From assembly GCF_003334385.1 (NCBI RefSeq), contig NZ_QOWN01000224.1: DNA of 239 nt; one strand, 5' to 3'. The DNA is from Escherichia coli. Lineage in GTDB: Bacteria > Pseudomonadota > Gammaproteobacteria > Enterobacterales > Enterobacteriaceae. The notes below the pieces were generated by a model, which ran no database searches, was not told where the DNA came from, and was given only the letters and a program-made list of their open reading frames with translations. The position numbers and the translations under genes were made by a program. Position 1 is the stretch's first letter. Each line of letters opens with the position of its first letter. Shown here piece after piece: positions 1-239 of this stretch.

Positions 1-41
1 GCAATAATGTATGTTCCGATGCTGTAAATTTCCCCGGGTAC
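1..41 (-). other. Start of non-collagenous C-terminal region ([13 protein letters not shown]...), continuing beyond the window
   Basis: Gly periodicity is lost after GRL. Residues become hydrophobic/aromatic (V, I, Y) and codons shift to AT-rich (GAA ATT TAC AGC ATC GGA ACA TAC ATT ATT). No stop codon before the window edge. Confidence 0.6.
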
Positions 42-239
42 CAGCCTTCCGGTTGGCCCTTGTGGTCCCTGTGGTCCCTGTGGTCCGGTTTTACCATCCA
101 ACCCGGGCGGTCCCATCGGCCCTCGCCCTCCGGCAGGGCCCCGTGGCCCCGGAACACCCTGCGCCCCCGCTGGTCCCCTTTCACCTCGTGGCCCTGCCGG
201 ACCTGCCTTACCTTCCGCTCCGGCGGTACCATCCTTTCC
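1..239 (-). CDS. Collagen-like triple-helix repeat protein, internal fragment (partial at both ends; N-terminal side beyond position 239, C-terminal side beyond position 1)
   Basis: Reverse complement read in the frame whose first codon is complement(237..239) translates without stops as [79 protein letters not shown] (79 codons plus 2 bases). Gly occupies every third position for 22 consecutive triplets, which is the defining collagen signature. The plus-strand open frame is a low-complexity shadow of this. Confidence 0.8.
42..239 (-). other. Collagenous (Gly-X-Y)n domain: 22 uninterrupted triplets, 66 codons
   Basis: Codons 1-66 of the minus-strand frame. Pro is at X in 11 of 22 triplets and at Y in only 2 (GVP, GPP). 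Charged residues K, D, E, R are frequent. No interruption of Gly periodicity. Confidence 0.8.
60..86 (-). repeat. 9-bp tandem repeat, 3 copies, encoding (Gly-Pro-Gln)3
   Basis: Plus strand reads ttgtggtcc / ctgtggtcc / ctgtggtcc at 60-68, 69-77, 78-86. On the coding strand these are GGACCACAG, GGACCACAG, GGACCACAA; the only difference is a synonymous third-position change (CAG vs CAA). The adjacent unit at 51-59 (GGGCCAACC, GPT) is a diverged fourth copy. Confidence 0.85.

Follow-up and report, generated by a model that had tools for sequence, protein, structure and literature searches.

A family of EHEC prophage collagen-like proteins, EPclA to EPclD, was defined by Ghosh et al. in 2012 (PLoS One 7:e37872, PMC3368898). 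In these proteins proline occupies 48% of the X positions and 7% of the Y positions of the Gly-X-Y triplets, with aspartate and glutamate found at X and lysine, arginine, alanine, glutamine and threonine at Y; the family carries many charged residues, and E. coli is without prolyl hydroxylase (PMC3368898). Recombinant EPclA is a trimer in the form of a dumbbell with a hinged stalk, and its collagen domain gives a triple-helix circular-dichroism signal with a Tm of 42 C without hydroxyproline (PMC3368898). The biophysics of that study covers EPclA and, in part, EPclB only. The C-terminal region of EPclC was noted there as unrelated to PfC, and the PCoil segment is often missing in EPclC. Table 3 of the same paper lists ECED1_1681 of E. 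coli ED1a as an EPclC of 493 aa with collagen stretches of 106 and 102 aa, and a GDPGGPPG break in the collagen is also described (PMC3368898).

A second described system is the side tail fibre of phage lambda (Ur-lambda). On the tail, the collar domain of its fibre protein gpStf is in contact with gpV and gpM, and a flexible link joins this domain to a trimeric shaft (PMC12617516). The gpStf paper mentions no collagen repeat (PMC12617516).

Here we analyse a stretch of E. coli DNA of 239 nucleotides (contig NZ_QOWN01000224.1 of assembly GCF_003334385.1), called the window throughout, which a preliminary description made from the letters alone had taken for a collagen of prokaryotic or viral rather than vertebrate origin. 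That assignment holds, as the window matches an ED1a prophage exactly and belongs to a bacterial ORF in a tail module. It is very probably an internal piece of the side-tail-fibre gene, in the stf position, of a lambda-like prophage of E. coli ED1a; the identity of the gene, its location, its domain order and its composition are direct observations. The encoded protein appears to be ECED1_1681, judged by strain, length and collagen lengths; a search for its exact sequence among protein clusters returned no entry. The window's protein is already described, and the paper of 2012 set out the family, its unusual composition and its stability without hydroxyproline; as the ED1a protein appears already in Table 3 of PMC3368898, no discovery of weight is reported.

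Reading frame and composition of the window

All reading frames run off both ends of the window, so that it holds no complete ORF, and translation showed frame 0 of the minus strand to be open from end to end. On this strand, window 48-239 encodes 21 collagen-like Gly-X-Y triplets and a closing glycine (residues 336-399 of a 493-aa tail-fibre protein), which is the distal two thirds of the second collagen block of that protein (Col2, residues 300-401). The non-collagen tip domain at the C-terminus opens in window 1-47, also on the minus strand, which holds its first 15 residues (400-414) and 2 nt of the codon after them. Glycine recurs at every third codon in a run of 22, against a maximum of 7 in 5000 dinucleotide-preserving shuffles read in all six frames.

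The triplet statistics bear out what the preliminary description had said of them. Proline is mostly at X (11/21) and rarely at Y (2/21, in GVP and GPP, the latter occurring once), and triplets with a charged residue (D, E, K or R) are frequent at nine out of 21, with GKD, GER, GPR, GLD and GAE all present. Stabilisation independent of hydroxyproline, which had been proposed on this basis, is the published interpretation of the EPcl family (Tm 42 C, no hydroxyproline; PMC3368898).

A perfect 9-bp tandem repeat of 2.9 copies was found with Tandem Repeats Finder at window 61-86 (minus strand), the unit being TGTGGTCCC on the plus strand and GGACCACAG on the coding strand, and encodes GPQ-GPQ-GPQ. 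The number of GPQ copies differs among close relatives, with three in the window and two in Escherichia phage PhiR12_5, a difference that slippage or unequal crossover without loss of the triplet register could account for. Glycine codons at window 48-239 are mostly GGA (9) and GGG (7), with a single GGC, and proline is mostly CCA (7). A preference for GGA and GGG glycine codons and for CCA proline codons is atypical for highly expressed E. coli genes, and the codon usage of the window fits horizontally moving phage DNA. An ATG-initiated antisense ORF of 376 aa was also considered as an alternative gene (plus strand, window 11-239, start codon at window 11; L012:3550-4680). It was rejected, since all domain homology lies on the other strand; its translation is of low complexity and rich in proline, valine, alanine and leucine, and the ORF most likely arises from the GGN-CCN periodicity, which is poor in stop codons.

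Base composition required some correction of the preliminary description. Its hand count of about 18 CpG dinucleotides is exact, but the abundance that it read into this number, and the placement of CpG in the codons CCG, GCG, CGA and CGG, were overstated. The ratio of observed to expected CpG is 0.74 in the window and 0.60-0.74 in the collagen blocks of the gene, compared with 0.93-1.0 in the surrounding prophage DNA, so that the window is better called not depleted to the vertebrate level than CpG-abundant. The named codons account for 10 of the 18 (CCG 4, GCG 3, CGA 2, CGG 1), while the other 8 span codon boundaries, 7 of these being a codon ending in C before a GGN glycine codon. The contrast in GC content stands, at 70.3% in the repeat vs 46.8% in the flank, but the 47-nt flank is hardly AT-rich at this value and is coding sequence for the C-terminal domain, not intergenic DNA. 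GC at codon positions 1, 2 and 3 of the repeat is 0.86, 0.78 and 0.47, and the 21.5-kb locus as a whole has a GC content of 51-52%; the local 70% is therefore imposed by glycine, proline and alanine codons, as had been proposed. As a matter of calibration, triplet composition together with codon-position GC sufficed to class a collagen-like fragment as phage or bacterial.

Chromosomal location and relatives

The window matches the chromosome of E. coli ED1a (CU928162.2) exactly at two sites, which lie in two near-identical lambdoid prophages, and corresponds to nucleotides 1006-1244 of the gene and residues 336-414 of the 493-aa ORF. An exact-protein match placed this ORF near 1.67 and 2.44 Mb of CU928162.2 and at the same coordinates in a second assembly, presumably of the same strain. 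An exact-pattern scan of viral contigs returned 13 loci, and the whole window is held exactly by two of them, L011 and L012, both from one IMG genome.

In both ED1a prophages the gene order up to the fibre is M, (porin), L, (ClpP, Arc, antirepressor), K, I, J and the 493-aa ORF. The ORF is uninterrupted and lies directly downstream of the tail-tip gene J, whose product scores 2127 bits against the NCBIfam model lambda_TipJ (cut-off 1950). It is followed by the gene for a 192-aa DUF4376 protein, a YadA-anchor protein, two small ORFs, a 1341-aa serine-protease autotransporter and DinI. The DUF4376 protein carries the PHROGs label 'tail fiber protein' and may be no chaperone but a distal subunit of the fibre. 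No prolyl 4-hydroxylase family was found among the Pfam families of genes in the approximately 20 kb flanking the fibre gene.

At L016:549-4676 genes other than tail genes break up the lambda-like tail operon: a 387-aa porin lies between M and L, and a protease resembling ClpP, two repressors of the Arc family and a Bro-N/P22 antirepressor lie between L and K. Surface-protein cargo was also observed just downstream of the fibre genes in both ED1a prophages (L016:12763-18804, L017:12762-18809). It comprises a YadA-anchor trimeric autotransporter of 394-396 aa, possibly an Eib-like immunoglobulin-binding protein, and the 1341-aa serine-protease autotransporter (Peptidase_S6).

BLASTN against phage records gave Escherichia phage PhiR12_5 (recorded host E. 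coli C) as the best match, with 95.8% identity over the whole window, and seven other PhiR phages with weaker full-length matches. The genes hit carry annotations as a tail fibre or a hypothetical protein, and in PhiR12_5 the homologue comes after the tail genes K, I and J. A search of one literature library found no publication on the PhiR phage series. Among 5426 complete E. coli genomes a match to the window was found in 38, all chromosomal and annotated 'tail fiber protein' or 'prophage tail fiber N-terminal domain-containing protein'; the best reached 98.8% in BLAST with a 36-nt insertion, and none reached 100%. In the homologue of E. coli G1/2 (L002:8001-8275) one Col2 glycine is replaced (GPV-SPA-GPA), giving a single break of the Gly-X-Y register.

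E. coli genomes hold many defective lambdoid prophages, and frame-disrupted EPcl copies are on record (PMC3368898), so the window could in principle belong to a remnant decaying in cryptic prophages, its ORF intact in appearance but no longer serving a function. This is improbable given that the ORF is intact and identical in both ED1a prophages and has near-identical counterparts in eight sequenced phages whose hosts are on record. Furthermore, the length differences in Col2 seen when homologues were aligned are always whole triplets (3, 6, 12 or 18 aa), and this constant keeping of the register argues for continuing selection on it. The tip domain recurs at 94-100% identity in the eight PhiR phages, for which E. 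coli C, K-12 MG1655 or ECOR13 is recorded as host, and this argues that the fibre tip functions in virions.

Domain architecture of the fibre protein

The 493-aa protein consists, in order, of a prophage-tail-fibre N-terminal domain (PfN), a collagen block, a phage-fibre repeat (Pf2), the second collagen block and the 94-aa tip. The Gly-X-Y runs in the ED1a ORF span residues 136-241 (106 aa, with one GDPGGPPG break) and 300-401 (102 aa). Over the whole gene proline is found at 34/69 X positions and 10/69 Y positions, and the commonest triplets are GPA, GPQ and GPK.

Pfam was run on the 517-aa PhiR12_5 homologue, whose N-terminal approximately 150 residues and tip are identical to those of the ED1a protein. 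On this homologue phage_tail_N (PF08400) matched residues 1-134 (E 2.4e-42), collagen (PF01391) matched five times, including 323-378 and 369-423, and Phage_fiber_2 (PF03406) matched residues 272-313 (E 8.6e-16); the Pf2 segment SVASVPDASTSQKGVVQLSS... is present in the ED1a ORF too, between the two collagen domains. No match to PF06820 (PfC) was returned for the homologue, and its last approximately 94 residues matched no Pfam family. Only about 30 helical residues lie between the PfN core and the first collagen block. Among PHROGs families the top match is phrog_366, 'tail fiber protein' (E 9e-126). When Protein Data Bank chains were searched, residues 1-91 matched the collar domain of the lambda side fibre (9E7M, chain Ta, and 9MGH; E 4.5e-29), and matches to the tail-fibre protein S of phage Mu were limited to the Pf2 repeat, 265-313.

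An alternative use for such a protein would be as a collagen-like adhesin of the Scl1/Scl2, Lcl or BclA type, displayed on the surface of the lysogen and absent from the virion. The neighbouring prophage cargo does consist of surface proteins (the YadA-anchor protein and the serine-protease autotransporter), BclA is among the Protein Data Bank matches (E 1.6e-7), and the NCBIfam models SclB, Lcl and SclA match at E 1e-37 to 1e-26. Their bit scores are nevertheless far below the curated cut-offs (129 vs 325, 94 vs 500 and 94 vs 400) and cover the repeat only. As the C-terminus (...GLFQRAY) is without an LPXTG motif or an autotransporter anchor, the N-terminus is the virion-docking collar domain of lambda gpStf and the gene sits in the stf position after J, an adhesin is highly improbable.

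Collagen alpha-2(I) and alpha-1(I) head the phmmer matches of the full protein in the Protein Data Bank (E 1e-72 and 3e-67), and the EPclA collagen domain is 56% identical to a Nematostella sequence (PMC3368898), yet an exon of an animal collagen, vertebrate or other metazoan, or of a C1q-family gene can be dismissed as next to impossible because the window has an exact place on a bacterial chromosome, in a continuous ORF of a phage tail module. The collagen matches span the Gly-X-Y regions only and reflect composition, Pfam found no C1q or fibrillar NC1 domain on the PhiR12_5 homologue, and proline at Y is confined to 2/21 triplets in the window and 10/69 in the gene. The preliminary description had named introns or splice sites, a eukaryotic gene context and best hits to animal collagen or C1q-family genes as signs against it. 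None of the first two was found, the ORF being continuous and bacterial and lacking a C1q domain. Best hits to animal collagen were literally obtained (Protein Data Bank, E 1e-72), yet these are compositional and restricted to the repeat, while the non-collagen domains are phage-specific; a naive test by best hit to animal collagen would mislead.

Tip domain and exchange of collagen segments

The tip domain of 94 aa (L016:11198-11479) was found only in E. coli and its phages, with at most 7/94 differences among all relatives found. In the terms of Ghosh et al. (2012) it is the EPclC-type C-terminal region, apparently 'PfC2'. A word-indexed homologue search and an exhaustive search of representative proteins returned only near-identical E. 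coli sequences, bar six weak, repeat-like matches; these apart, the 1.84 billion representatives yielded no relative of less than about 90% identity. The six (E 2e-8 to 9e-4) were rejected as homologues, being long proteins with 6-9 matched stretches each; the two that were inspected, P0015 and P0018, are highly repetitive. We treat them as motif-level resemblance (IKDxNGN...GxDGN), not homology. A phmmer search of Protein Data Bank chains with E up to 10 found no relative of the tip, a match to water-soluble chlorophyll protein at E 0.11 being set aside as due to chance. An AlphaFold2 model of the tip, built on an alignment of 7 sequences at least 93% identical, was unusable, with a mean pLDDT of 46 and a pTM of 0.34.

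Two scaffolds carry this tip, namely the lambda-type siphophage Stf and a P2-type myophage tail-collar fibre. The N-terminus of the latter, a P2-like fibre, is Phage_tail_fib (PF12571), and upstream of it lie baseplate genes; a comparison of the P2-like and lambda-type fibres (L013 vs L015) showed only the last approximately 95 nt of the collagen and the tip to be in common. The homology begins abruptly at GPRGLQGE, inside the collagen block. The same fibre tip was also seen in E. coli G1/2 (L002), where the phage background differs and includes a major capsid protein of the N4-gp56 family.

Exchange within the repeat was observed in the window itself. Pairwise nucleotide alignment of L011 with L009, another ED1a prophage copy, delimits an exchangeable collagen cassette at window 60-144 (minus strand), which in L009 is replaced by a divergent or unrelated cassette 27 nt longer; the two are about 100% identical on both sides of it. 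Shorter fibres of 287 aa (P0012) and 426 aa (P0014) have identical N- and C-termini and have lost internal collagen or Pf2 segments, as though the two collagen blocks had recombined with each other. A tip without distant relatives, its two scaffold types and the junctions inside the repeat together suggest, as a tentative and on balance unlikely reading, that the collagen-coding repeat serves as a register-tolerant recombination linker that moves an orphan, E. coli-restricted tip of 94 aa between unrelated fibre scaffolds, in which case the tip may also be a new receptor-binding fold. The fold and the receptor of the EPclC tip are a modest question for phage host-range engineering.

Discussion

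Taken as a side tail fibre, the 493-aa EPclC-type protein is probably a homotrimer. From the biophysics of EPclA and EPclB we infer that trimer formation and hydroxyproline-free triple-helix behaviour extend to it. The N-terminal collar, as the counterpart of the gpStf collar domain, would dock on the tail tube, and two collagen-like triple helices would form a thin, stiff shaft, with the phage-fibre (Pf2) repeat as a hinge and a short helical segment between them. The helix would be stable without hydroxyproline by virtue of about 50% proline at X, charged residues and a terminal trimerisation domain. The C-terminal domain of 94 aa would cap the shaft and, by analogy with the unrelated PfC, most likely acts as the nucleus for trimerisation and either bears the receptor-binding activity or recruits it, possibly jointly with the downstream DUF4376 protein.

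The comparable systems include Scl1/Scl2 of S. pyogenes and BclA of B. anthracis, which combine hydroxyproline-free Gly-X-Y triple helices with a globular trimerisation cap. They differ in having less proline and more threonine and glutamine at Y, in their cell-wall or exosporium anchoring and in the lack of phage tail domains.

Lambda (Ur-lambda) gpStf has a homologous collar domain, a Pf2 repeat and a gene downstream of J. It is presumed to be a homotrimeric side fibre that speeds adsorption (PMC12617516), and the same is presumed here. Its shaft is modelled as a coiled-coil, and its distal domain, said to resemble T4 gp37, binds OmpC (PMC12617516). The present fibre has instead a collagen-like shaft, an unrelated 94-aa tip and, downstream, a DUF4376 gene rather than a member of the classical lambda chaperone family Tfa, with whose help the lambda fibre is assembled. 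Of the gpStf features, the collar domain is found at this locus (E 4.5e-29), and a gpStf-like distal region and a Tfa gene are not.

EPclA and EPclB of E. coli O157:H7 (ECs2717, Z1483) share the PfN domain, the collagen shaft and the prophage tail-fibre context. They differ from the present protein in their long Ala/Ser-rich PCoil (about 110 aa) and their C-terminal PfC (PF06820), whereas here PfN is followed by a short helical stretch. EPclC matches in every respect compared. Its domain order of PfN, Col, Pf2, Col and a non-PfC C-terminus is the order found here, and so is its X/Y preference, with proline at about 50% of X and rare at Y, and alanine, glutamine, threonine, lysine and arginine at Y. 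The sequence and gene-order features of EPclC were found at this locus, namely the PF01391 collagen, PF08400, PF03406 between the collagens, the lack of PF06820 and a tail module with the gene after J. ECED1_1681 comes from the same strain, has the same 493 aa and the same collagen lengths of 106 and 102 aa, and shows no detectable difference from the protein to which the window belongs.
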